Notes under the pieces: model-generated | Databases searched by the model: none | The model's input: the letters and a program-made list of their open reading frames with translations, nothing else | Told to the model about the DNA's origin: nothing | Assembly: GCF_032062105.1 (NCBI RefSeq) | Contig: NW_026928409.1 | Coordinates: 124,001-188,000 of the forward strand | DNA: 64,000 bases | Origin: Saccostrea cucullata | Taxonomy: Eukaryota | Reading direction: 5' to 3' | Part shown: positions 15,978 through 55,083 of the stretch, in pieces | Position numbering within the stretch: position 1 is the stretch's first letter | Layout of the letters: the number at the start of each line of letters is the position of its first letter | Translations under genes and position numbers: made by a program

Positions 15978-17058
15978 AACACCCCCCCCCCCCACTATCG
16001 AATAAGTTAGGAGACGTTATATAAACACGGAATATCACTACACAAATAAGAAAAGTTGTCGATATTAAAGCTGATATAATCTGATTTTCATTTAGTTTAT
16101 TCTTAAAATATCATGTATGAAATTGATGTGGCAGACTCTATGGCGTTTTGTGTTTAAAGATTACAAAATGTATAGATATATGAATGGAATTAACTATTGT
16201 TAATTGAAAAACGTCATTGATATGTTTGAATGTCAAGATGAAGACCAAAGCAGTGGTTTTTCTTCTTGGAAGTTCGTGAATATATTCTGCTTCACAGAAA
16301 AGTATAAGCTAGTCAACTAGTAAAGTAGCAAAATAATTGTTCAACTGTCAGATTGGCAATAACAATCTTGACAACGACTTAATTGACATAAAATCCATGT
16401 ACAACTGTAAATGATTTAAACTTGTTTGACTATTTAAAAAATAAATCAGAAATTTTTCAAATATTAATTTACTACATTTTCGGTTAAAGATATTTAACTT
16501 GCATTGATAAGACCGAATAAAGCAAATGTAGATAAAGTACTACAAATTAAGACCTATACTCGGCACTCTGGGTCACTGAGTAGTGCATGTTTTGTTTCTT
16601 GCTTGTTTTGTTTGTTGGATTTTGCTAACACCTACTGTGACACAGGACCAGTGTTTATAGTCCCAAACAACGTACCGCTGAGGAATTTAGCCCGCGATGT
16701 AAAAATTAACTCCTTACTCCGCGACTTTAAAGCAAACACTGTTTGGTAAATTGAAAGATATAAATGAATAAAAAAGATACAAAAATCATTGAAGAATTAA
16801 ATGGAAAGGAAATATTAACATAATGCCTCTAAACTCTTACCATTAAAAAAAAATAAACAAGGGTAAATCTTCACCATTGTTTGATCGAACAAGAATAATT
16901 ACATGAAACACGAAAAAAAATTATTTCCATTATGTAAGTAGAGGTAAATGTATGTACATATAGCATGAATGAACCCGAAACGTGCCCCATATCAAGCGTT
17001 TAGATAACTTCTGTCTCTGTGGTCTTGAACTAGAACTCACGGCTTGATTTCGGACAAA

Positions 17059-17334
17059 ATGCGTTTCCTATGCAGGATCATATGTTTTACTTTAGTGATC
17101 TCCGTTGTGGCTGATGGTAAATTGAATGGAAATGTCGTTCTTGAATCAGAATCTGTTGAGGAACGTGCAGTAACGTTAAGTCCTGCGGTAGCTAGCAGCC
17201 TTGCCGCCAGTCTGCACCATCTCTCCAGCGTTTTTCATCATCTAAACTTTACAGCACTGAAGCATTTAAATCTAACAACACTGGGACACCTTTCGTAAGT
17301 ACTCTTTTTGAAGAATCATGTAATAAATCTAAAC

Positions 17335-17366
<32 letters not shown>

Positions 17367-18816
17367 TTATAATTAAAAGTCTGAATGGTATAACCGTTGA
17401 ATTTGTGTGTTGTCTAGGGCTATCTTCGAAGATTGCCCAACTGTGACATTTTTAACGTGAAAACTTACCTTGTAACTTACGTTTTGTTTTTGATTAGTCC
17501 TGTCACTCTACATGGAAATGCCACGTAAGTTGCTACACAGAAACGTCAAGTACATGAAAATACCAGGTAGGTAGATACAAGGACATGATACATAACTAGC
17601 TACATATAATAGAGAATAGCACTACAGCAGCTTCATTGAATGATACCCAGAAATTCAAGATTTAGAATAAGATGCTTGGCGTTCTAGGTAACATCAGACT
17701 TCTTAGATCCGCGCCGTATATACGGCGCATACGGAGTGCATACGGAGCGGATCTAAGTAGTCTGATTTTAATTTAATTGGGGTGCTTAGAAAGAGTAAGC
17801 ATCCCCTTGCGACCAGACACAACCGATCTGACTTTTTGTGTTGATGAGACGGAATATTCCATGGTCAAATTCAATATAAAAATAAAGCAAGATTAGTTAA
17901 TGATAACAGATTTACTATATCTACAATAAAAATAGAAAATTTTTATGCTTGTAAAAAAAATCTACTTTTAATTATCGAAATCAACATTTTGTAACTGAAC
18001 ACATTACTATACTGAATCCTTCTGTTAAATTAATAAATGCTTTATTTTAAAAAATCCGATGAATTTCAATACATTTATTTTTTTCAAGCGGGGTTTTCTG
18101 GGAGGAAAAAGATATTGATAATTTAATATTAAATTCAATGATTTTAAGAAACCACTGGTGTTGCAATACTGCTACGACTAAGAAAATAGTAAAGAGCCAC
18201 TCACAGCTGATATACACGAAGCAGATCAGAGACCGTGTTTCACATCACCACTGTGGATTTTTGGGAACGAGTCGCTGTGCACGACACCACTACTACTACA
18301 TGTATCTGATTTTTTTTATAATTAAGATATCCATTGTATTTCTATGTAGGGAATTCGGTAATAGTTCATACAGTAAAAATACAAAATCCAGAAATTATTT
18401 TTTTATATATATATTCTTAGGTTGACTTTGTAATTGTGCTTAGATTTTGCATAGAATATTCGAATAAGCGTTTCATCCGTTCATTTTAACATCCTTTCCA
18501 TTGAAATTAGATCAGTACCAGCTTATAAAAGGACATACTCAACTCAAACCATCCACACCTCATGTCCAAGTCAAAATCTGGTTTGCTGTAAGGACTACAT
18601 TCTTATAGCTGATAATTGTGTTCGTAAGTACAATGCTTTAGTCTAATTGTTAATAAGTTTTGAACAACTACATGTTTTTAAAAGGTGATCAAGTAATTAC
18701 TTTCATGTGTTCTATCTTAGTTTTGCATGATATTGTTTTCAGCACTGAACGAAATTCCCAATATAAAGGATGACTTGATCAAGCTTCATAACGCCAACAT
18801 TCCTGTTGGGAAATGA
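17059..18816 (+). CDS. Secreted EMI-like cysteine-rich prepro-protein, copy A (200 aa, 5 exons)
   Basis: Exons 17059-17294, 17498-17524, 18149-18301, 18511-18623, 18743-18816; all GT-AG; 603 nt in frame. Signal peptide MRFLCRIICFTLVISVVA; domain NHWCC-x29-C-x7-C-x25-C-x6-CC-x9-C; ends IKDDLIKLHNANIPVGK*. Confidence 0.88.
17337..17366 (+). repeat. (AG)n microsatellite in intron 1 of copy A
   Basis: Uninterrupted agagag run. Confidence 0.9.
17693..17766. mobile_element. Short palindromic MITE-like insertion
   Basis: atcagacttcttagatccgc...gcggatctaagtagtctgat inverted arms; interrupts a Penelope-like 3' fragment in intron 2 of copy A. Confidence 0.55.
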
Positions 18817-27249: not shown

Positions 27250-28735
27250 GATATACAAAGGACGGACCTTTTCTGATAACTGTGTTTTAAGGTCCGCCCT
27301 GTCCCTTTCTCGTGTTTTGAAGCTACGAAAATAAAAGCTGTCCAAAAATTTCCTTTATGACATGAAAATATCTGAAATACAGAGGACGGACCTTTTCTGA
27401 TAAATGCGTGTTAAGGTCCGCCCTGTCCCTTTCTCGTGTTTTTAAGGTACGAAAATAAACCCTGTCCAAAAATTTCCCTTCAAAACATACAGATATCTGA
27501 AATACAGAGGGCGGACCTTTTCTGGTAACTGCGTTTTAAGGTCCGCCCTGTCCCTTTCTCGTGTTTTTAAGCTACGAAAATAAACCCTGTCCAAAAATTT
27601 CCCTTTAACACATAAAGATGTCTGAAATACAGAGGGCGGACCTTTTCTGATAACTGTGTTTTAAGGTCCGCCCTGTCCCTTTTTCGTGTTTTTAAGCTAC
27701 GAAAATAAACCCTGTCCAAAAATTTCCCTTAAAAACATACAGATATCTGAAATACAGAGGGCGGACCTTTTCTGATAACTGCGTTTTAAGGTCCGCCCTG
27801 TCTATTTTTTTTTAGTTTTCAAGCTACTAAAATAAACCCTGTCCAAAAATTTCCCTTTATGACATGAAAATATCTGAAATACAGAGGGCGGACCTTTTCT
27901 GATAACTGCGTTTTAGGGTCCACCCTGTCCCTTCCTCGTGTTTTTAAGCTACTAAAATAAACCCTTTCCAAAAATTTCTCTTTAAAACGTAAAGATATCT
28001 GAAATACAGAGGGCAGACCTTTTATGATAACTGCTTTTTAAGGTCCGCCCTGTCCTTTTCTCGTGTTTTTAAGCTACGAAAATAAACCCTGTCCAAAAAT
28101 TTCCATTATGACATGAAAATATTTGAAATACAGAGGGCGGACCTTTTCTGATAACTGCGTTTTAATGTCCGTCCTGTCCCTTTCTCGTGTTTTTAATGTA
28201 CGAAAATAAACCCTGTCCAAAAATTTCCCTTTAACACATAAAGATATCTGAAATACAGAGGGCGGACCTTTTCTGATAACTGCGTTTTAAGGTCCGCCCT
28301 ATTTCTTTCTCTAGTTTTTTAAGCTACGAAAATAAACCTGTCCAAATCTTTTTTGTATGTCATGAAAATAACTGAAATACAGAGAGCGGACCTTTTCTGA
28401 TAACTGTGTTTTAAGGTCCGCCCTGTCTTTTTGTCGTGTTTTTAAGCTACGAAAATAAACTTTGTCCAACATTTTTCCTTTATGACATGAAGATATCTGA
28501 AATACAGAGGGCGGACCTTTTCTGATAACTGCGTTTTAAGGTCCGCCCTGTCTCTTTATCTAGTTTTTTAAGGTACGAAAATAAACCCTGTCCAAAAATT
28601 TCCCTTCATAACATACAGATCTCTGAAATACAGAGGACGGATCTTATATATTATGCTGCGCTTTAAGGTCCGTCATGTCACTTTCTCTGATTCTTATGCT
28701 ATACGAAAATAAACCCCGTATACAATTTCCTTTGC
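27250..28735 (+). repeat. Tandem array of about 12 units of ~125 bp inside the TIR element
   Basis: The (c/t)tgaaatac anchor recurs at 27372, 27497, 27622, 27747, 27874, 27999, 28123, 28248, 28372, 28497, 28623. Units carry GGGCGGACCTT...AAGGTCCGCCC or a close variant. Confidence 0.95.
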
Positions 28736-30399: not shown

Positions 30400-30887
30400 T
30401 TTTAGCTCTGATTATGATACGCCATATTTAGCTATACAATTTTAATTAAACTAAGAACAGCAAATCATCGTCTTCCAGTTGAGACTGGGAGATGGTTTGG
30501 AATTCCCAAAAATGATAGACAATGTAATCTTTGTAATAATGGACAAATAGCTGATGAGTATCACTACATTTTAGAATGTAAATATTTTTCCGAATATAGA
30601 AAAAAATATCTTCCTAGTAAATATTGTAATAGACCAAATTTTTTCAAATTCTCAGAATTGTTGTCATCTGCTGACTACAAAGTATTAATTAAACTATGCA
30701 GTTACATAAATAGAGTATATGAAAAAGTCTGTCCTCCATAATTATTTATGTTACTTTATTTGAATGTATTTCCGCCATTTCACGTGTATCTTGTATTTTA
30801 TTTTTTGTATATATTGTACATATATTGTTGAACCTCATGTACCATTGATATGGTTTGAGAGAATAAATTGAACTTGAACTTGAACTT
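30400..30887 (+). mobile_element. 5'-truncated LINE (3' end of ORF2 with Cys/His motif and tail)
   Basis: LIKLRTANHRLPVETGRWFGIPKNDRQCNLCNNGQIADEYHYILECKYF...VCPP* (stop 30739-30741), then AATAAA and a (TTGAAC)n tail. Confidence 0.8.
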
Positions 30888-31909: not shown

Positions 31910-32325
31910 GTGTGTGTGTGAAACACCGATGCCCCCGTATAGAAGCTTGTAGAGAGGTTTGAATTTTCTCAAATGCATACCACTTTAAGGTCATAAGGTC
32001 AAAATTGTTTGTTCTCAAAGGAAGGTCTTTTCACAAGTAAAGCAACTGAAAACTATGAAAGCCCTTGCTCTATCTGTTCAAAAGTTATAACCAAAGATAC
32101 ATAGTGTGGTAACTTTTGTAAAAGTGGGTTAAACTCCAAGGTCAATGTCAAGAGATCAAATTAAGTGGTACCCAAAGAAAGGTCTTGTCACTAGGAATAC
32201 CCCTGTGAAATATAGAATAGCCTCACCCACTCAAAAGTTACGAGCAAGGTTAATTTTTCTGCAGACGGACAGAGAGGACAAAAACTATATACCCCGAATC
32301 TTCGATTACGGGGGCATAAAAATTC
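31910..32325 (-). mobile_element. HINE/Helentron-like non-autonomous element
   Basis: Ends tgtgaaacaccgatgccccc and ccccgaatcttcgattacgggggcataaaaa; aaggtca core motifs. Confidence 0.6.
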
Positions 32326-33847
32326 GTTAAGAGAAGTAATGAATGTTTGCATCTTGGGATATTTTATTCCAGTATAGACTTTATTTTACGTTAATAAATG
32401 TACAAAATTTAGCCCTGTTTCAGATATTCTTCTTATCATTTGGTTTGTATGTAGAAAGTTAAACAATGTAAAAGATAAAGATTTCTGTATTCTTTTAAAT
32501 ATAGGTTCTATTGAATAAATCATTATTGATTTTTTTTTTTTAATTCTTTGTATAATATAAATCATATATAGTACCAATTTCGATGCACAAAATGCCCGTT
32601 TTGACAAAATTATGTCTCTTCATTTATATGCCGTTCGAATTCCGAATGAATTAAAATTAAGAATTTAAAGAGTTGAAAAAATTGGTGCCAGCGACTGAAG
32701 CCATTTACATGTACGTCGAAGGATTATAGCTTTGCAAGATGAAGAATCCTAACCTTGAAAATACGGTATACTTCTAAATTTACCACAGCAATTAAATTTG
32801 AATCCATGTTTTCAAGCTGGTAACGAAAGTACTTAGCTACTGACCTTAGGAGACCCTCGGGGAATAACAGTCTACCAACAGAGGCCTCGATACAGGAATC
32901 ATAATATATATCTTAGATGATACCAATTCTAATGCTCCAGATCCGCACGTTGACAAATTATGTCTACTCAGTAAAGCCCATGCATCAGTAATGTGTATAT
33001 TGTTTTAGTATGAATCCGTAAGATACTGACCTTAAATGATTAACTCTGCTTATGATACATAATATTTTAATAAAGCTGATTACAAAATATCATTGATGGC
33101 ATTTCCAAGAATTGGCATCTTAATTTACTCACAGCCACTGAAATGATAAAAAAGAAACATAGGTAGGGCCAACAAAATTAATCAATAGTTTCTCAGGCAC
33201 CGCCGCATCAGGTCAAAAACTTAGATAAACAATATATTTCTTGTAAACTGTTTTTCATGCATTAATGTAAGAAAACAAGAAATAAAAAAAAATTAATTGC
33301 CTGTGGTAATATGCAAATTTAAAACCTATCCTCTGCACTAAGTTCCATTTAGAAAAGGAAGGTCATTTTTCTACGAAACGAGAACTTTTTAATATGAGAT
33401 TCAAACCCTCGACGTTAATACACTTCTTGCTCCGCGGGCGACGGACAACTCTCTTAAACACTGCCACACAATATCAATATACATGTAGTAGATCATCTTC
33501 AGGAATTGTAGAACATACCCACAAGTTCTTGTACAGTGTGTATGGACGAAGCTGTAAGTTACATGGGCAGGTGAACAAGATCCTAGCTTTTTATAACCTT
33601 GACAAACTTTTGGTGGGAAGGCATCCGCACAAGGTACTGAAATATAAATGACTAGATTCCATAAAGATATATATATTTAGTAAAAAGTGAATTCAAAATT
33701 TTACCACTTCTTAATTAACAACTGACCAATACTGAAGTATAAAAATAAATATATTCAAATAAATGATTTGAAAGCTAATGCTTTTATCTTTTTCATCATT
33801 ATCACGCCAAATTTCTTGTATTTCCTTATATCAACTTCTGAAAATCA

Positions 33848-35204
33848 TTACGTACGTGGAGTTGTCGTTCTTACTGGGGCTAAATGAAGATCATCAATGC
33901 TAATATATCCACCTTTATACAGTGTTGTTATAAGATTCGCAGTGGCCTGAGACATAGCCAGCTGTAATAATGAGTAAGAGAATGAAAACATGGTTAGATA
34001 AATTTTAGCAGCTTTGATTACATATTTCTAATCAACAAATTACTTATTACAAACTACGTGTATTCGATTTAATAGATCCGACGAGAATAAAAATGATTAT
34101 GGTACAACTTTTTATTTTAAGAATGTTCGTTTTCGCAAACATAATTACTATACAGCTACCTCCGGCGTCTCCCCAAACCCTGCTACCACTATTCCGGTGG
34201 CGATATCCTTAATAGACACGGTGGTTCCTCCTCCCATTACTTTTACACCGCGACCCATAATGGTCGTCTGTAAGGAGGTGTTGAATTTCAAAAAGCAAAA
34301 TCATCAAATTTTATTGAAGTTTTTTCATAAAGAGTGTAACTGTGTACAGACAAATAAATCTTCAATGTCTGTTTAAATTCAATATTCACTGTATCCTAAA
34401 TTGTTTTCCTGACTTAACCGCCAGATTATTACTTCTGCGAAAAGAAACAATGTAAACCAAACTTCAAAATATTCTACTTATTCAGTGTTGTAAAACTAAA
34501 AATAAGCTTCACTACATTACGAGCATTCTCAACAGCTAAACATCATCATACATGTATAAATATCATGAACAATTAAAATTAACATCGTTAATAAATAAAT
34601 TAAATTTTGATATCACTACTTACATAAGGACTCTCTCCAAATAACGTATTCAGTAGGTAATTTCCAGCCGTGTTGACAAAGTTCGTGACTTGTCCGGCGA
34701 GAGCTTGTCCAAAGGCTGCTGACACTAGGGCTCCAACTTGTCGTCTTTGTGGAGCCCCATTTACAGAGAACAATACAGCCGAGAGGCTCAAGCAGAGAAA
34801 GAATACTTAAATGAATAAATAATGATAGAATTTAGTCAAGGTATTAATTCAGTCAAAATTAGAAGTCTTTGATATTCCAAGATTAACCTTTACATGCAAA
34901 ATTGTGTCATAGAACCATAGATTTACATTGTAATACTTTTGTCTAGGAGTGTACTTTCGATACAAAATATTCATGCGAGTTTTATTTGTAAAAAAATGAT
35001 ATCAACGATACAAATAATATTTTCTTATCAGTCTTTCGTCCTTAGCTTTTAAGGATATTTTGGTTTGGGGTTCTAAAAAGTTACAAAAAATGATTTTAAA
35101 AAACAATTTCCTTAAATTGTGAAACAGAGAAAAGAAAAAAATTACAACAGTTTAACAAATGCTATAGAGATTAAGAAACATCGAGACATACCTGTAATTT
35201 TCAT
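33848..35204 (-). CDS. Secreted cysteine-free protein with ALF/scygonadin-like architecture (138 aa, 4 exons)
   Basis: Exons 35204-35192, 34805-34624, 34267-34160, 33961-33848; GT-AG; in frame. MKITVFFLCLSLSAVLFSVNG-APQRR-QVGALVSAAFGQALAGQVTNFVNTAGNYLLNTLFGESPYTTIMGRGVKVMGGGTTVSIKDIATGIVVAGFGETPELAMSQATANLITTLYKGGYISIDDLHLAPVRTTTPRT*. The gene model is well supported; the family call is tentative. Confidence 0.75.
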
Positions 35205-37959: not shown

Positions 37960-39356
37960 TCATCCAACGACAATTCCGCCATTATGTAGATTGATGAGGT
38001 CGTCCTTAATGTTAGATATTTCACTTAGAGCTGTAAAGTAAAAATAAAAGAACATATTATGAAGTATTGAAATAGTGAAAATAACTAATGACTATTGTTG
38101 TTAAAGTATTTTGTCTTTAATATAATAAATATTTCTTTAAAAAAAATAATTGAATTCATTTAATTTAATCCAAACATTCTCGGAGGCAGTCATATCGCTG
38201 CTAATTTTTTGAATGGTTTTAATTTGCATCTTATGATGTCTTAGATTTTATGAATTGCTATATAGTATGCAGAAATTTTTTTAGNNNNNNNNNNNNNNNN
38301 NNNNNNNNNNNNNNNNNNNNNNNNNNNNNNNNNNNNNNNNNNNNNNNNNNNNNNNNNNNNNNNNNNNNNNNNNNNNNNNNNNNNNNNNNNNNNNNNNNNN
38401 NNNNNNNNNNNNNNNNNNNNNNNNNNNNCAAATTTCATATTTTTTGTTGTGTTTTTTTTTGCCCTATCCATCCTTTCATCAAGTTCATTCGCCTTTGTAT
38501 CGTCACTATATGTAGAAAGGTAATTAGTTTATAAAAGTCAAAAAGAATACAAGCAAGCTTCAATATACTTACGGACACAACTACCGGCTACTAGAACGTA
38601 TCCTTTACAGCAAACTAGGTTTTTGTTGGGACAGCTGGTGTGAATGACCTTTACTGAGTATGTTGTTTTGTATTGCGGTACCGAGCTGCAACATAATATA
38701 CACTGTTACTATATTAAGACATTATGCATAGATATAGGTCTTACTTGAAATCTTATTTAAAAATACATAGTATAGAGTCAATAATATAGTAGAAAAAGTA
38801 TAATGTTTTGCATTATTATAACTAATTATATACATATAGTAGTAGTGATGCCTGGCACATCGTGACAATCCCAGAAAGCCACAGTGATGATGAGACACGC
38901 GATCCCTGATTTGTTTAGTGTACAGAAGCTGTGAATGTGTCTGTGTGATTTTCTTTGTCGTGGCAACGTTACAACACCAATGAGCCCTGGTAATCATGAT
39001 AGAAATGGTTAGTAAAATGAAAGTTTAATCCGGTTTTGGAGTTTTTTCACCTTTTGAAGCTTTATAGGGCATTTATAGAACACCATTTAGAAAAAAAAAT
39101 ATGACTTTCTATGTGTATATACGAAAATAAGGGAATTGAAGGTTAGACTTAAGATGGAGATAAAAGAAGTTAAACGTCTTGATACACACGTCGCATTTCC
39201 ATGAAGAGTGACTGCTCGCACAACACGTTGAGCGTTTTCTGGAAGGTCCAGGATATGCATTTTGCCAAGAGCCTCTTTTTCTTTTTCACTTAGGAACTCT
39301 AGCGGATCACAAATTATGAAAGTAATGCACAAATAAAAACATAACAATCGTAGCAT
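37960..39356 (-). CDS. Secreted EMI-like cysteine-rich prepro-protein, copy B (167 aa, 4 exons)
   Basis: Exons 39356-39190, 38986-38834, 38685-38573, 38030-37960. Signal peptide, pro-piece ending RVVR, AVTLHGNATAHWCC...CGFLGLSRC...CPNKNLVCCKGYVLVAGSC, end IKDDLINLHNGGIVVG*. The last intron contains the N gap. Confidence 0.88.
38285..38428. other. Assembly gap
   Basis: Run of 144 N. Confidence 1.
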
Positions 39357-40530
39357 TTTTACCAGTTTTCAAGTTTGCTCACTATTTCCTAAACTTTAAG
39401 ATAAACACAGAGTGATTCCGAAAGTGTAGGTGAAAAATCAGATGTACAAGGGGTCATCATGTGTGGTGTTCCCATATTGAAGTGGCTTATGTCAAAGAAA
39501 CACGTAATACCAAGATATGACAACTGAACTTTTAATTACAGTACATCGCACAAACGGACTGTTGTGCTTGACTTACTGCACTGATCTGTAATCCACACCG
39601 AACCTTATAAGTCGAACATTGTTTTCTATGACCTTCAAATCAAAACTTAAAATTCTTCATTAAAAAGCATTTCAGTTCATACATCGAATTGATGTATATC
39701 AGTGGCGTAAAATTTTACACAGAGCATAACCTATATATTTCATGTTTGAATGAGTATAAATCTTGATTGTAAATTTAAAAGTATCAGTGTTTATTTTGGT
39801 ATATTAAAGACGTAATTGAGAATACAAATTTGACAAGTTAATAGTAAACAAAACTTGGATTTTCTGGGCCTAAATAATGTTAATAAGCATCAGTTTGAAA
39901 ATCTGTGAGATGCAGGATGAAATTCTGTCATTAAAAAGAAAGGATATAATCACTTAAATTTCATATATTTGTCTGCATTCTAATTTTAATTTGTACAGTG
40001 TTAAGTAAGGAAACATGGAGCTAAAATTTACGTGTTTTAAAGACTCTGTCCTCAATATTAAGGCGAAGAAGATGTATACAATGGATTTATTTAGTACAAA
40101 ATACATGGAATTTGTTTTGACATACAAGTAGAATAGAGCTATGACCATAGAAAAAGTTCATGAATATGCTTTTGCAAAGTTAAATGGCTTTTTTCATATT
40201 TGATACTGGGTAAAAAAAAATCAAATAGACAAAAGCCATGGTGTTAGAAATAGATGCATTTAAAATACATTTATTTTCAGCTTCTTCTGTTTAGATTTGC
40301 CTTATGTTTAAATTTTAATAATTCTAAAGGTTTACGGAATTAAATGAATATATTCTGGACATTTTCGGGGGTCTGACATTTCACTTGCTCTTTAATTCCG
40401 TTTTCGTATTTGTCTTAAAATCCACTTTTAATCAGCCGAAATATACGTAGTATGTCAATAAAGTATTGATAAGATTTCAAGCGACAAGGGAGTCCTCTAG
40501 AGGTACAATATAGTTAGTAAAGCCACGATA

Positions 40531-41737
40531 ATGCTGAAATACATCGCTTTTACATTGATCGGAGTAATAATAATACAAGGGGCACATATTAATAGGAATA
40601 GACGCACTGGAACAGCGTAAGTCATGAAAACTTTCAATTTAACTATGAAAGAATATATTTCGTCTCCAGAGAGAGTACCAACATGCTGCAGTATACTGGC
40701 AACTTAGCCACATATGATCCACATATGAGTATCATGTGATTCTCATATGACTTGCCACATATGATTTTCATATGATTGTATATACATATGATTCTCATAT
40801 GATCCACATATGATCCTCATATGAAAGGTAATGCATATGTGGATCATATGTGGCTAAATTGCCTATGTATAACAAAGTTTTTAAAAATAATGAAAGTCGT
40901 GGTGGTAATTCGGATCTTAACTTTCAGTTATCTGTGCTTTCATTTCATTGTTTAGGGAACATTGGTGTTGTGGTGTGGATGTTGCACCAGTACGGAAAAA
41001 CGTGACGACAGTTGATGTAGTACCAACACAGGTAACAAAAATAGTGAATACTACATACCAGAGAGACTGCCACTTTGGAGAGACACCCACTATCGCGGAG
41101 GGACTTCTGTGTGAGGACATCGTCAGCCATGTTGTGTATGGTTTGTTAAAATATTGTGTATTTCCATAGGATGGGAGAGGCGAGTGAGGGATGCTAAGAA
41201 AACATTGAATCATTTTTCAAAGCATACATGTACTGAAAAACAAACTTTTATTCATAAATTATATTAATGATTTAAACATGTAATTATTTTGTTTAAAATG
41301 CGTTTTATAGAGAAAATTGATGAATATTTTGAACATTTTTAGAACGACGACGGAGTTAAAGGAAGTCAATAAAACAACGATTGTTGAGTACCCTGGGAAA
41401 TGTCCTCAGCACTATCTCCACTGCTGTGACGGATATGAAAAAGTAGGATCCCAGTGCTTAGGTAGGATTTCATCGCAAAGGATTTTAGCCGGAAATAAAC
41501 TTATTTAAAATATTTAAAATAATCAATTATCAAACCTTTTGATTATGATTTGTGTTGTAAATGTGCTCTTTGATTCTTTTTTACGTGTGTTCTTTCTTAT
41601 TGACATGTTAATAAATATTATATATTTTTGACATGTTACTTATATCAGTACTAGTTCTTACTTATATCATTTTTTTCACAGATCAGGGAGCATCAAGTTC
41701 CCTACAAGAACTCATAGATGCTGGCCTACTTGGATAA
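40531..41737 (+). CDS. Secreted EMI-like cysteine-rich protein, copy C (146 aa, 4 exons)
   Basis: Exons 40531-40616, 40956-41135, 41343-41461, 41682-41737. MLKYIAFTLIGVIIIQG-AHINRNRR-TGTAEHWCC...C-x13-C...CPQHYLHCCDGYEKVGSQC...SLQELIDAGLLG*. Confidence 0.88.
40698..40863. mobile_element. MITE built of CATATG modules, in intron 1 of copy C
   Basis: ggcaacttagccacatatgatccacatatg ... catatgtggatcatatgtggctaaattgcc inverted ends. Confidence 0.65.
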
Positions 41738-43865: not shown

Positions 43866-44633
43866 TCAACCAAGAAGGGATAGTGCAACTTCATGAAGAT
43901 CTCTCAAATCTGAAAAAAGTAGGAAAAGAACATTATTTAAGTACGTTACATGCATGTGTTGTCCAAACGATTTCTGTATTGCTTTATCCATGATTTTGGT
44001 TCATTTCATAAAAATTATTAACTTACAAACACATTTGTAAGCCACCATAATGTACATGTTGCAGCATACGATGTGTTCCTTTGGGCATCGGCCTTCAACA
44101 ACTGTTTTATAGTATTCAGTTACATATGTTGTTACTGGTCTACAACAGAAATAAAGCAGATATGTTTCATCAATTTAAAAGAAATACATAGTTTTGCTTT
44201 TCCAAAATCTTGCATTTTACGAAAAGTATCATACATACTTGTCATTTACAAGATGATGCCTTGCAACGGAACGTGATTTAGTAACCAGTGGTAGAGGTGT
44301 ATTTCTGCAGCAAAGATGTTCCCTTAAAAAAAATTACAGGCGACTGTTTTAAAACCACCAGGTATATATTAAAAAAACAACTTTGAATCCCCCCAAACAG
44401 CACAAGACGAGTACATACCCTGTAAGTGTTGCCCGTACAAGTCTTTGTAATGATGGTGGAAGATCTCGTTCATCAGCCCTAGCCAGGGCCTTTAGTTCGT
44501 CTTCACTTAAAGTTTCCTCAGCTCTTACTTTTCTGATTATTGGTTTCAATGAAAAATCATCACAAAATCCGACAAGAATTAAATTTAGAAATAAAACCAA
44601 AAGAAATATTCTCTTCATGCTGGTAGTCGCCAT
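43866..44633 (-). CDS. Secreted EMI-like prepro-protein, copy D, 6-Cys short form (151 aa from first ATG, 4 exons)
   Basis: Exons 44633-44419, 44322-44239, 44139-44027, 43909-43866. Pro-piece ...DLPPSLQRLVR; EHLCC-x40-CPKEHIVCCNMYIMVAYKC; ends LHEVALSLLG*. Confidence 0.85.
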
Positions 44634-45129
44634 TTTCTAATTTTCAAAGAGATAAGACGGCCAAGGGTCATAGGATATTATATTTGAATTCCATTAAGAC
44701 ATTTTCTTATGGCTAGACAATAAGTTTTGAAAATTGAGACATCATGTGTTATTTTTCGATTTTATTTTATGAATCATTTGATAAGAAAGTATAATACTCT
44801 CATTTTAATAACATATGTTTTGAGACTAAATTACATCACATCTGATTCGCATTTATTTTCCAAATGATAGAGTACTAGTCTTGTCCTTCGCAAAGTTACT
44901 TAAAAACTTCATTCTGATATCAGTTATAAATATTGAAATTTTCCGTTTAAAATTTTTACTAGAATAATGTAAATAAAAGAAATAATAAATGGAAAATATT
45001 AGTGTTTTATTCACCAAATAATTTCAAAATGAACAATATGATAATGTAACTATTAACAATTTTAACAATCATTACTTCCATTCATATGACGACTCTATAT
45101 ATTCCAATGAACATGAAATAAAAAGATAG

Positions 45130-45714: not shown

Positions 45715-46150
45715 TTATGCGCCTGGATCGATAGATCCGGGGCGTATATTGTTTTTGTCCTGTCTGTCTATCTGTTTGTTTGTTTGTTTGTTTGTTTGTC
45801 TGCAAACTTTAACCTTCGCCATAACTTTTGAACCATGAAATATAGAGACTTCATATTTGGTATATATACTCCACTAATTTTGCTCTTTCAAATGACGCCA
45901 AGGTCAATGACCTTGTGACCTTGACTGTGACCTGTATACTAAAAATAGCATTTTAGTACCTTCGCCATAGCTTGTGAACCATAAGAGATAGAGACTTCAT
46001 ATTTGGTGTGCATACTCCACTAACCAGGTTCTTTCAAACTACCGAACTACAATGACCTTGTGGCCTTGACTGTTTCCTATATGCTAAAAAACAGCTTTTT
46101 TGCGAATTTTGTTGCCGCCGGGTGCATAGTGTTTCACAAACACATCTGGT
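45715..46150 (+). mobile_element. HINE/Helentron-like element
   Basis: 5' hairpin ctggatcgatagatccgg, (TGTT/TGTC)n microsatellite, gaccttgtgaccttga core repeats, 3' end catagtgtttcacaaacacatctggtt. Confidence 0.7.
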
Positions 46151-52418: not shown

Positions 52419-54964
52419 TTAACCAAGAAGTCCAGCTTGCATAAGATCTATCAAATCCTGCTTGTAGGCCGCTGCTTCACCGAGCACTGCAATGGAAAAA
52501 ATATCAGAATTACTAGGAAATATTCATCTGTAAAAGTCTCTTCTATTAAATAATGAATTTCAACAGAGAGAGTGTAATACATACGCATGCAGTTTCCAGT
52601 GATGTTTACGTAATGGTTACAACAAACAATGTTTGTATTGGGACACTGCTGAATCAGAGGCATCTCCTCGTAAGTCAGATGGGTGATCAGTTTCTCTCTG
52701 TAACATTTTTAAGATATGAAAGTTTTCTAGTTACCTATTTCAAATAAGTTAATAATTCTGTGCGATGAATTTAGAAATTTTTTTCTACTGTAGTTTAACA
52801 TATTGAGCAGTTTCCCTAGCAAAAAATCCTTTTTAACATATTCATATCTTAATTCTTTTTCAAGGTTCTATTGTCCATTCTTATTAACATTGATAAAATT
52901 GGTTGATATTCTAAAATTTGGATAACTTACTGATATCTCAATTCATTTTGATGGCATTTTCCACTGTTCAGAAATCCACATGAATTTTCTCCAACCTGAA
53001 CTTGAACTCCGACCTTTACTATTTCGCTGACGACCTTTGACACTGTCTTATAACCAATAGGAGAACTTGTATCGGTGGAGCAGCAAAAATGTCTATATAA
53101 TAAACATAAAAACATTAGTAAAGAATTCAAATGATACAGTGTTTACAATTAAATGTGTTGATAATCGCAAAGCAACAAATATAAAAATCTATAACTCCTC
53201 CTTTTCTCTAAATTCAAAAATTAAAAAAAGCTAAAAAAGAATTTAATCTATTTCTCTTTTTTTAATTACCAAAGAAATTGAGTACTGTATAAGAAACACT
53301 TTTGTATTATCATTTTCTCTTCATAATTTTATTTGATGACGATTTAAAATAAATGCATCACTTCATATCATTCACATAACGCTATAAAAATATACAACTA
53401 AAAGTTTATGTGAATGGGGTATCTGAAGAAAATAATATAACTCAAAAATTCGAATCAAGCCTTTTAATTCATTTTAAATAGAGAAACAGGTAAATTATTC
53501 ATTGAATTGGAGCCAGTCAAGGGATTTCCCAGTCAAAGCCCCCTAATAAAAACGTCCCGGTCAAAGCGTCCCCCGATTTTAGTCAAAGCGCCCCCTAATT
53601 TTGGTCAAAGCACCCCCTAACATATTTTTATAGAAAAAATACCGTCCCCAAATATTGGTCAAAGCGTCCCCTGATTTTAGTCAAAGCGCCCCCTAACATA
53701 CTTTTCTATAAAAAATTCATTACTGTCCCGAAGAAATGATCAAAATGCCTCCTGATTTTGATCAAAGCGTGTTCTGGTTTTGGTCAAACGCCCCCTAACA
53801 TATCTTGATAGGATTTTGGGAAGGGGTGGGGGTAATTACAGAGGGCTCAGGTAAAATCAAGATGTATAATTTGCGTATTTCTGGCTTTTATTTCGGAGTT
53901 CGAAAAATCTTGCATGGTGCCAGTAAAAAAATCAGGGGACATTTTGTCCATTGCTTGGGGATGGATTCGAAACGATTTTTTTCTACTGATAGAATTATAT
54001 TAGGGGGCGTTTTGACCAAAATCTGTGACGCTTTGACCAAAATCGGGGGCATTTTGACCAATTCTTGGCGACGGTTTCGAAACGATTTTTTTTCTAAGAA
54101 AAAATATGTTAGGGGCGCCTTGACCAAAATCAGGGGGCGCTTTGACTAAAATCAGGGACGCTTTGACTACAATCATGGGACGCTTTGACCAATATTCGGG
54201 GGAGGTTGTGTAACATCATTTTACTGTAAAATTCTATAAAGGGGCGCTTTGACCAAAACATAAAGCCGCCCCCCTAATGAAACCGTCCCGGTCAAAGCGT
54301 TCCCGATAATGGTCAAAGCGTCCCCTAATTTTGGTCAAAATGCCCCATGATTTTGGTCAAAGCGCCCCTTTATAGAATTTTACAGCAAAATGCCAAAGTG
54401 TAAAGCTGCCAAAGTTCTCCTACCATATTGTTGAAATGTTAACAATGTTTTCAAATTTTAAATCGCTTAACTATGACCTCTCAATGGATCACTTATGGTA
54501 TCGCAGCCTATCACATTGTGTTGAAAGTGTCAAAGGGGAAAAACAAAGAAATATAAACAGAAAAGTAAAAATTTTCTTGTCAAATATGGAATTTATTTTA
54601 CGTATAAAACAATATTTTCATAATTTCAATTATGCACACTCACAAAAAATATCAATAAAACATCTGTTCCACTCATGAAATAAATTTCATATCCATCTAC
54701 CAAATATTGAATACATTCAACTGAATACATTTATTTCTTATTTACAAAGATAAATCAGGAGTAAATCAGGAGTACTTACGAGTTATCCCCAGTTTTTGTT
54801 CTTCTTCTCAAAGCAACTTGTAACCGAAAAGGAAGATCGCTAAATTTGGCGTTGGCGAGAATTGCAAGTTCCTGAGGAGTAAAGGGATTCTTTATAAGAT
54901 GGGAGGAGAGCAGGTAGCACGATCCTAGGATTAGCAGAGACAGGGATATGATTCCTTGTGCCAT
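52419..54964 (-). CDS. Secreted EMI-like cysteine-rich prepro-protein, copy E (175 aa, 4 exons)
   Basis: Exons 54964-54780, 53092-52931, 52697-52585, 52486-52419. Pro-piece ...SDLPFRLQVALRRR; HFCC-x33-CGFLNSGKC-x25-CPNTNIVCCNHYVNITGNC; ends KQDLIDLMQAGLLG*. Confidence 0.88.
53530..54390. repeat. Foldback element of ~22-bp modules in intron 1 of copy E
   Basis: ggtcaaagcgccccct-type modules run forward at 53530-53800, reverse at 53930-54260, and forward again at 54270-54370. Confidence 0.75.
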
Positions 54965-55083
54965 GATTGCCAGTGAGAATTTACCAACAGTCAAAAGATA
55001 AAAGAGTTGACGAGATCTTATCGAAGAACGCGTCATAACAGTTATTCAAAGATGGCCGCCTGGTGGACTCGAAGGAACAAATT

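Follow-up and report, generated by a model that had tools for sequence, protein, structure and literature searches.

We identified, on the minus strand of the Saccostrea cucullata genome, a gene for a two-domain protein whose N-terminal domain, as judged from a predicted structure, very probably has the alpha-beta4-alpha-alpha fold known from arthropod ALFs. The second domain is a six-cysteine module of ShK type. Common ancestry of the N-terminal domain with ALFs and scygonadins is probable. The gene lies within a 64,000-nucleotide stretch of contig NW_026928409.1 (here called the window), which is AT-rich animal DNA with a GC content of 29 to 36%.

Gene structure and two-domain product

The coding span (33125-35204, minus strand) comprises six exons separated by five GT-AG introns of phases 1, 0, 0, 1, and 2, and it specifies a product of 179 amino acids. 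Coding exon 1 (35192..35204) carries the start codon and residues 1 to 4 and is followed by the phase-1 intron; upstream, the 5′ untranslated region lies under an RNA contig up to about 35393. Exon 2 (34624..34805) encodes residues 5 to 65, which comprise a likely signal peptide, a pro-piece, and the long N-terminal helix. Exon 3 (34160..34267) encodes residues 66 to 101, a predicted four-stranded sheet with no Cys and a net charge of 0, and both of these exons are followed by phase-0 introns, at Tyr65/Thr66 and Glu101/Leu102. Exon 4 (33856..33961) contributes residues 102 to 136, with two predicted C-terminal helices and a Thr-rich linker between the N-terminal domain and the ShK-type part. 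Exon 5 (33519..33636) encodes residues 137 to 176, or most of the ShK-type domain, and exon 6 (33125..33137) adds the last cysteine and the true stop codon. Exons 5 and 6 were both absent from the first model of the gene, which described a single-domain protein.

Once spliced, the six exons equal P0001 (XP_062615793.1, Saccostrea cucullata LOC134277480) plus a stop codon, letter for letter, and a protein search with exon 2 as the query returned P0001 at 100% identity over the query. The identity with P0001 and the presence of orthologues in other bivalves demonstrate that the gene is real and not a chance reading frame. The segments quoted in the preliminary description (a signal-like N terminus, APQRR, a Gln-initiated Ala/Gly helix, LFGESPY/TTIMGR, and AMSQATANLITTLYKGGYISIDD) are all found on the minus strand, in four exons with GT-AG introns.

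The 3′ end of the gene had been placed at 33848. However, the TAA at this position sits in intron 4, and RNA contigs from all four runs joined exon 4 (end 33856) to exon 5 (33636-33519). Loose contig ends in each of the four runs matched 33108-33137, which includes exon 6, with one mismatch, and one contig spanned exons 1 to 5. The runs come from a related oyster, 90 to 99% alike, rather than from this genome; their status as RNA is on record for one run and guessed for three, and they carry no tissue labels. Contig depths ranged from 2 to 1130 and are not taken as expression levels. A short isoform was not seen among the contigs of the four runs, in which rare forms are dropped. Purifying selection acts on the gene: in run X2, whose pieces over exons 2 to 5 differ at 39 places, 20 of the 24 listed coding differences were synonymous and 21 of the 24 fell at third positions, counts that cover the listed differences only.

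By inspection, residues 1 to 21 resemble a signal peptide, and a five-residue pro-piece ending in Arg-Arg precedes Gln27 (codon at 34740). The protein is likely secreted. Cleavage of the signal peptide after Gly21, followed by a furin-like cut after Arg-Arg, would yield a Gln-initiated mature product of 153 amino acids. Such processing would resemble that of big defensin precursors, in which pro-domains also have dibasic ends (PMC7203481). The dibasic-then-Gln start is present in five of five oyster proteins of our 13-row alignment (A4). In the four scallop proteins (P0006, P0027, P0028, and P0029), no Gln start is evident and the pro-region is longer; the Ala/Ser/Gly-rich region ahead of their ALF-fold domain is much extended. 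The likeness to big defensins is one of architecture only: both have a signal peptide, a dibasic pro-piece, a hydrophobic N-terminal part, a linker, and a six-cysteine C-terminal domain, but the folds differ in both parts, and big defensins did not appear among the Pfam or PDB sequence matches. A homodimer prediction scored 0.02, which bears neither way.

The two domains differ in composition. Residues 27 to 132 contain no cysteine (pI 5.6, net charge −1), whereas residues 139 to 179 contain six (pI 8.3). The gene had been described as cysteine-free, which is true of the first domain only; the ShK-type domain encoded by exons 5 and 6 has six cysteines. Its cysteines (C139, C148, C157, C171, C175, and C178, over about 40 residues) align in ShK spacing with those of 7L2G, OspTx2a, and BgK. 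The Pfam ShK model (PF01549) matched the oyster protein at 17.2 bits (E = 0.0076), below the curated cut-off of 20.9, and it matched 10 of the 13 rows of A4, in which row 1 was entered without the ShK-type domain and row 13 is cut short (best E = 0.0025). Matches to solved ShKT peptides were weak (7L2G, E = 0.0007 to 0.004). Between Cys157 and Cys171 there is no Lys, and Thr-Tyr stands where BgK has its Lys-Tyr dyad. The oyster copy shares six C-terminal cysteines in ShK spacing with aurelin, BgK, and 7L2G but differs from this domain family in its subthreshold Pfam score, in the missing dyad, and in forming one half of a two-domain protein. The dyad is also missing from aurelin, a ShKT-family peptide that is antibacterial and binds anionic vesicles (PMC10608444).

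Predicted fold of the N-terminal domain and comparison with ALFs

The AlphaFold model of the N-terminal domain, built from a 13-sequence alignment, had a mean pLDDT of 74.1 and a pTM of 0.69, with the strands at 81 to 87. The alignment is shallow; a model from four sequences only reached a pLDDT of 38 and was set aside unsearched. In model numbering, the predicted elements are H2-33, E39-42, E45-52, E55-60, E66-70, H74-91, and H97-101, that is, three helices and a four-stranded sheet. The same arrangement, in which four strands are flanked by one helix on the N-terminal side and two on the C-terminal side, is described for Limulus ALF and ALFPm3 (PMC10672452). Structure searches agreed with this likeness. 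Foldseek ranked shrimp ALFPm3 (2JOB) first (E = 0.058, probability 0.96, TM 0.55/0.57), and of the 48,161 chains compared by VIA-align it was likewise the top match (Z = 8.6, rmsd 3.0, 92 of 102 residues, 9% identity). It was the only chain with a Z of 8 or more, the next reaching 6.4 over 68 residues, and it again came top when Foldseek's own list was re-scored, although all three rankings rest on one model. Identity over the structural alignments was 9 to 12%.

A Foldseek E value of 0.058 is not significant alone, and in VIA-align a best Z of 7 to 8 is usual even for models that have no clear match. Nevertheless, we consider the match to 2JOB credible because the target had been named from sequence beforehand, because the alignment spans nearly all of both domains, and because further lines of evidence agree. 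The preliminary description had proposed an ALF/scygonadin layout and had suggested AlphaFold with Foldseek as a check; at the level of the predicted fold the proposal held, and an unrelated fold did not emerge. In a viral structure library nothing was significant (best E = 0.045, TM 0.27).

Gene layout and short motifs point in the same direction. In shrimp ALF genes, three successive exons hold, in turn, the leader with the first helix, the sheet of four strands, and the pair of C-terminal helices (PMC6213531), and exons 2, 3, and 4 of the oyster gene divide the predicted elements in the same way, a correspondence that holds for elements only and not for positions or phases. In a comparison by eye with Table S1 of the same paper, the turn leading into strand 2, TIMGRGVKV in the oyster and TVLGRGVRL in the scallop, paralleled TFLGRPCKI of crab scygonadin and FMGHTC of a crab ALF. 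In the C-terminal helix, ATANL/ATQDF...GYIS of the family paralleled ATKDF...GLIT of ALFs.

Sequence profiles did not recover this likeness. The Pfam model Anti-LPS-SCYG (PF11630), which had been put forward as a check, matched none of the 13 members at E values up to 10, and it was absent for single exons, whole proteins, and alignments alike, in searches where HMMER filters drop weak matches. Sequence and profile searches of solved-structure sequences did not retrieve 2JOB either, again at E values up to 10. Their weak match to a phage head fiber (3QC7, E = 0.8 to 1.6) was set aside, as it covers the last strands and helix only.

The oyster domain also departs from ALFs in the features by which they are defined. 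As the preliminary description had noted, both cysteines are missing from the N-terminal domain, and so is the cationic loop. The domain core is free of Cys in all 13 proteins, which rules out the two cysteines of ALFs as well as the scygonadin pair flanking 17 residues. From the strand register, Val73 and Ile84 would occupy the places of the two ALF cysteines, with about 10 residues between these positions rather than 20. An Arg71-Asp86 cross-strand pair may brace this shorter hairpin instead of a disulfide, as suggested by the register of the predicted secondary structure; both residues are invariant in 13 of 13 members. Instead of a basic cluster, the 36-residue strand region contains 2 to 4 Lys/Arg across the 13 proteins at a net charge of −1 to +2 (3 and 0 in the oyster protein). 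The core is anionic in each of them (pI 4.3 to 6.2), as in scygonadins. With 179 residues in two domains, the protein also exceeds the single domain of 97 to 124 residues typical of ALFs. Lacking the disulfide and the basic cluster, and with a short hairpin and two domains, the oyster protein falls outside the definition of an ALF and is better described as an ALF-fold protein.

Compared with ALFPm3 and Limulus ALF, then, the likeness lies in the predicted fold, in a leader followed by a hydrophobic and often Gln-initiated helix, in the exon partition, in the turn motif before strand 2, and in a C-terminal G-hydrophobic-I-[ST] motif. The differences extend beyond the domain itself to the extra pro-piece, the ShK-type fusion, the missing PF11630 match, and the occurrence in bivalves. 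Scygonadins (Scylla and Carcinus) are ALF-related and come closer in their anionic charge, shorter hairpin, three-exon genes, and motifs, which are the closest by eye, but they keep two cysteines, are single-domain, and belong to the crab reproductive tract.

Family distribution and surrounding locus

Members of the family were found in Saccostrea (two), Ostrea, Crassostrea/Magallana, Pinctada, Pecten (two), Mizuhopecten, and Ylistrum, that is, in oysters, a pearl oyster, and scallops. Pecten maximus has two copies. The Magallana gigas orthologue is LOC105347062. Two further records belong here: P0007/P0018, and P0017, which is truncated and more distant. The family was assembled from word-based searches and from an exhaustive profile search of 1.84 billion representatives. 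The latter gave 14 matches at E values up to 0.001, from which 8 single-exon fragments and 1 bacterial composition match (P0016, a Pseudomonas Ig-repeat protein, E = 8e-5) were dropped. The alignments exclude P0030 (71 amino acids) and the single-exon fragments with intron tails (P0008-P0015). Among the matches of these searches, which are shallow for distant relatives, none is a named protein of a mussel, gastropod, or arthropod. The ESM Atlas gave no usable match, and neither the 29 nor the 315 pattern matches in metagenome contigs were confirmed as family. P0017, a marine record, is 30% identical to the oyster domain and retains the linker together with the first cysteine of the ShK part; with it, the family may reach beyond the named bivalves. 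Databases name the family records "uncharacterized" or "ShKT domain-containing."

Both domains and the linker are kept in all full-length members. Among oysters, identity is 72 to 91% in the N-terminal domain and 92 to 93% in the ShK part, and the C-terminal helices of exon 4 hold a conserved G[YF]IS..[DE]L motif. Within the window the gene is single-copy.

The ALF-fold gene is surrounded by at least five H[WF]CC pieces and related Cys-rich exons. Likely secreted, Cys-rich, intron-split genes lie at 17029-18643, 40921-41505, and 63520-63729 on the plus strand and at 38541-39368, 44004-44636, and 52454-55045 on the minus strand. In these genes a leader and pro-region go with one exon that carries H[WF]CC, often alongside CGF[LW], and another with the pattern CP...CC...C; the encoded domains may be EMI-like. 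The best tblastn match outside the ALF-fold gene had an E value of 0.11, and thus its neighbors have no significant similarity to it; 14 single-exon pieces from them gave no convincing Pfam match. A defense role for the locus, which the gene had been thought to support, is therefore not supported by the neighbors. Nor do the single copy in the window and the strong conservation of the ALF-fold gene itself speak for such a role.

Other features of the window include a tandem array at 27253-28716 (125-base unit, 11.7 copies, 86% matches) and arrays of a 146- to 147-base unit at 45812-46100 and 58989-59798, with related pieces near 32133-32327; the latter unit is probably a dispersed oyster repeat. 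A stop-free stretch on the plus strand at 30418-30741, KLRTANHRLPVETGRW...C..C...DEYHYILEC, resembles the C terminus of a non-LTR retroelement protein. An assembly gap of 144 N (38285-38428) adjoins one of the Cys-rich genes.

Possible function and origin

The N-terminal helix is long, hydrophobic, and partly amphipathic. This helix, together with the big-defensin-like pro-piece and the aurelin-like ShK-type module, leads us to favor a role in defense, to which we give a little less than an even chance. On this reading, the protein is a secreted bivalve protein with ALF-fold and ShK-type domains, distantly related to ALFs and scygonadins, that binds lipids or microbial envelopes without a lipid A clamp. 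The hydrophobic helix and the uncharged sheet could drive binding, and the ShK-type module, which is mildly basic, would bind anionic surfaces by analogy with aurelin. The outcome would be the tagging or trapping of microbes in mucus or body fluid and not strong neutralization of endotoxin; in big defensins, the hydrophobic domain traps bacteria (PMC7203481). Classic endotoxin neutralization is unlikely, since the oyster strands hold three basic residues and carry no net charge. In cationic ALFs, lipid A is bound by residues of the hairpin and of the strands next to it. These residues are missing from anionic group D ALFs, whose LPS binding is lower by about 20-fold and whose antibacterial activity is weak (PMC3701609). 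The identifiers of the oyster gene were absent from open-access paper texts and from the supplements of four papers (PMC11750097, PMC12064177, PMC7720132, and PMC6281612), which may use other identifiers, so that this absence bears on expression neither way.

The strong conservation and single copy in the window set the gene apart from expanding antimicrobial families, and for this reason we disfavor an arms-race peptide. These two features would also fit a rather unlikely alternative, in which the same ALF-derived architecture serves as a nonimmune component of mucus, adhesive, or shell matrix, with a conserved host molecule as its partner. The missing cationic site is consistent with such a role, as are a Thr-rich linker that could carry glycans and the occurrence of ShKT proteins in limpet adhesive mucus (PMC7333891). 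However, both the ALF fold and the processing through a signal peptide and propeptide to a Gln start are typical of defense peptides.

We consider it improbable that the protein acts, like scygonadins, in the reproductive tract, in seminal fluid or on the surface of gametes, where it would modestly inhibit microbes or modulate gametes. Scygonadins are anionic, with a shorter hairpin and 17 residues between their cysteines (PMC6213531); in crabs they are active in the ejaculatory duct and also affect the acrosome reaction (PMC10053787). Around strands 1-2 and 3-4, the oyster protein looks by eye more like scygonadins than like cationic ALFs, but the scygonadin cysteines are missing. Furthermore, reproductive proteins of broadcast spawners are often fast-evolving, whereas the oyster protein is conserved.

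Slightly more improbable still is that the likeness to ALFs is convergent and reflects an independent elaboration of a common alpha-beta-beta-beta-alpha core of dsRBD/HicB-like type. After the ALF, nearly all structural matches of the model (m0e3e7feccfcf) were dsRNA-binding domains (dsRBDs), which share this core and reached Z scores up to 6.4. Whatever the origin of the oyster domain, this ranking suggests that ALFs themselves have a dsRBD-like fold in elaborated form. Convergence would also fit the lack of an HMM match to PF11630 and a weak Pfam match of 1 of the 13 members (E = 0.017) to DUF7387, which we take to be a HicB-like family. Yet the dsRBD matches covered 53 to 75 residues in most rows and missed the extra strand or the last helix, as opposed to the 92 residues covered by 2JOB, and convergence would not account for a secretion signal, an exon partition, and motifs in common. 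In addition, dsRBDs are intracellular, and the helix that follows their third strand opens with a basic motif for RNA binding. Residues 97 to 116 of the oyster protein contain neither Lys nor Arg, and the Pfam dsRBD models matched none of the 13 members.

A potassium-channel-blocking ShK toxin with a carrier domain is highly improbable: the six-cysteine pattern and the weak matches to solved ShKT peptides would suit it, but the segment that bears Lys-Tyr in BgK has no Lys here, aurelin being likewise without the dyad, and oysters are not known to have a venom apparatus.

ALFs are described as confined to marine chelicerates and crustaceans (PMC6213531), isopod ALFs keep both cysteines (PMC7017220), and the "ALF-like" genes of two other papers (PMC12609373 and PMC8221624) are crustacean ALFs. 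The domain is not wholly unseen outside arthropods, since one bdelloid rotifer gene is labeled PF11630 in a table of PMC12220480. Searches of the open-access literature turned up neither a bivalve protein with the ALF fold nor a fusion of ALF and ShK domains. It is possible, although we hold this more loosely than the proposed role in defense, that the ALF/scygonadin fold predates the split of arthropods and mollusks, that the bivalve form is disulfide-free with a short hairpin braced by the Arg-Asp pair, that the cationic LPS loop closed by cysteines was an arthropod addition, and that oyster ALF-ShK proteins are an unrecognized class of bivalve defense proteins whose ligand is not lipid A.

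If the fold and the exon partition are truly shared, the origin of the scaffold would move back to the protostome ancestor, and a defense fold supposed to be restricted to arthropods would extend to bivalves. A natural version of the ALF fold without the disulfide and the cationic loop would make the role of the remaining fold testable. For farmed oysters and scallops, the protein may represent a candidate defense factor that sequence searches have missed.
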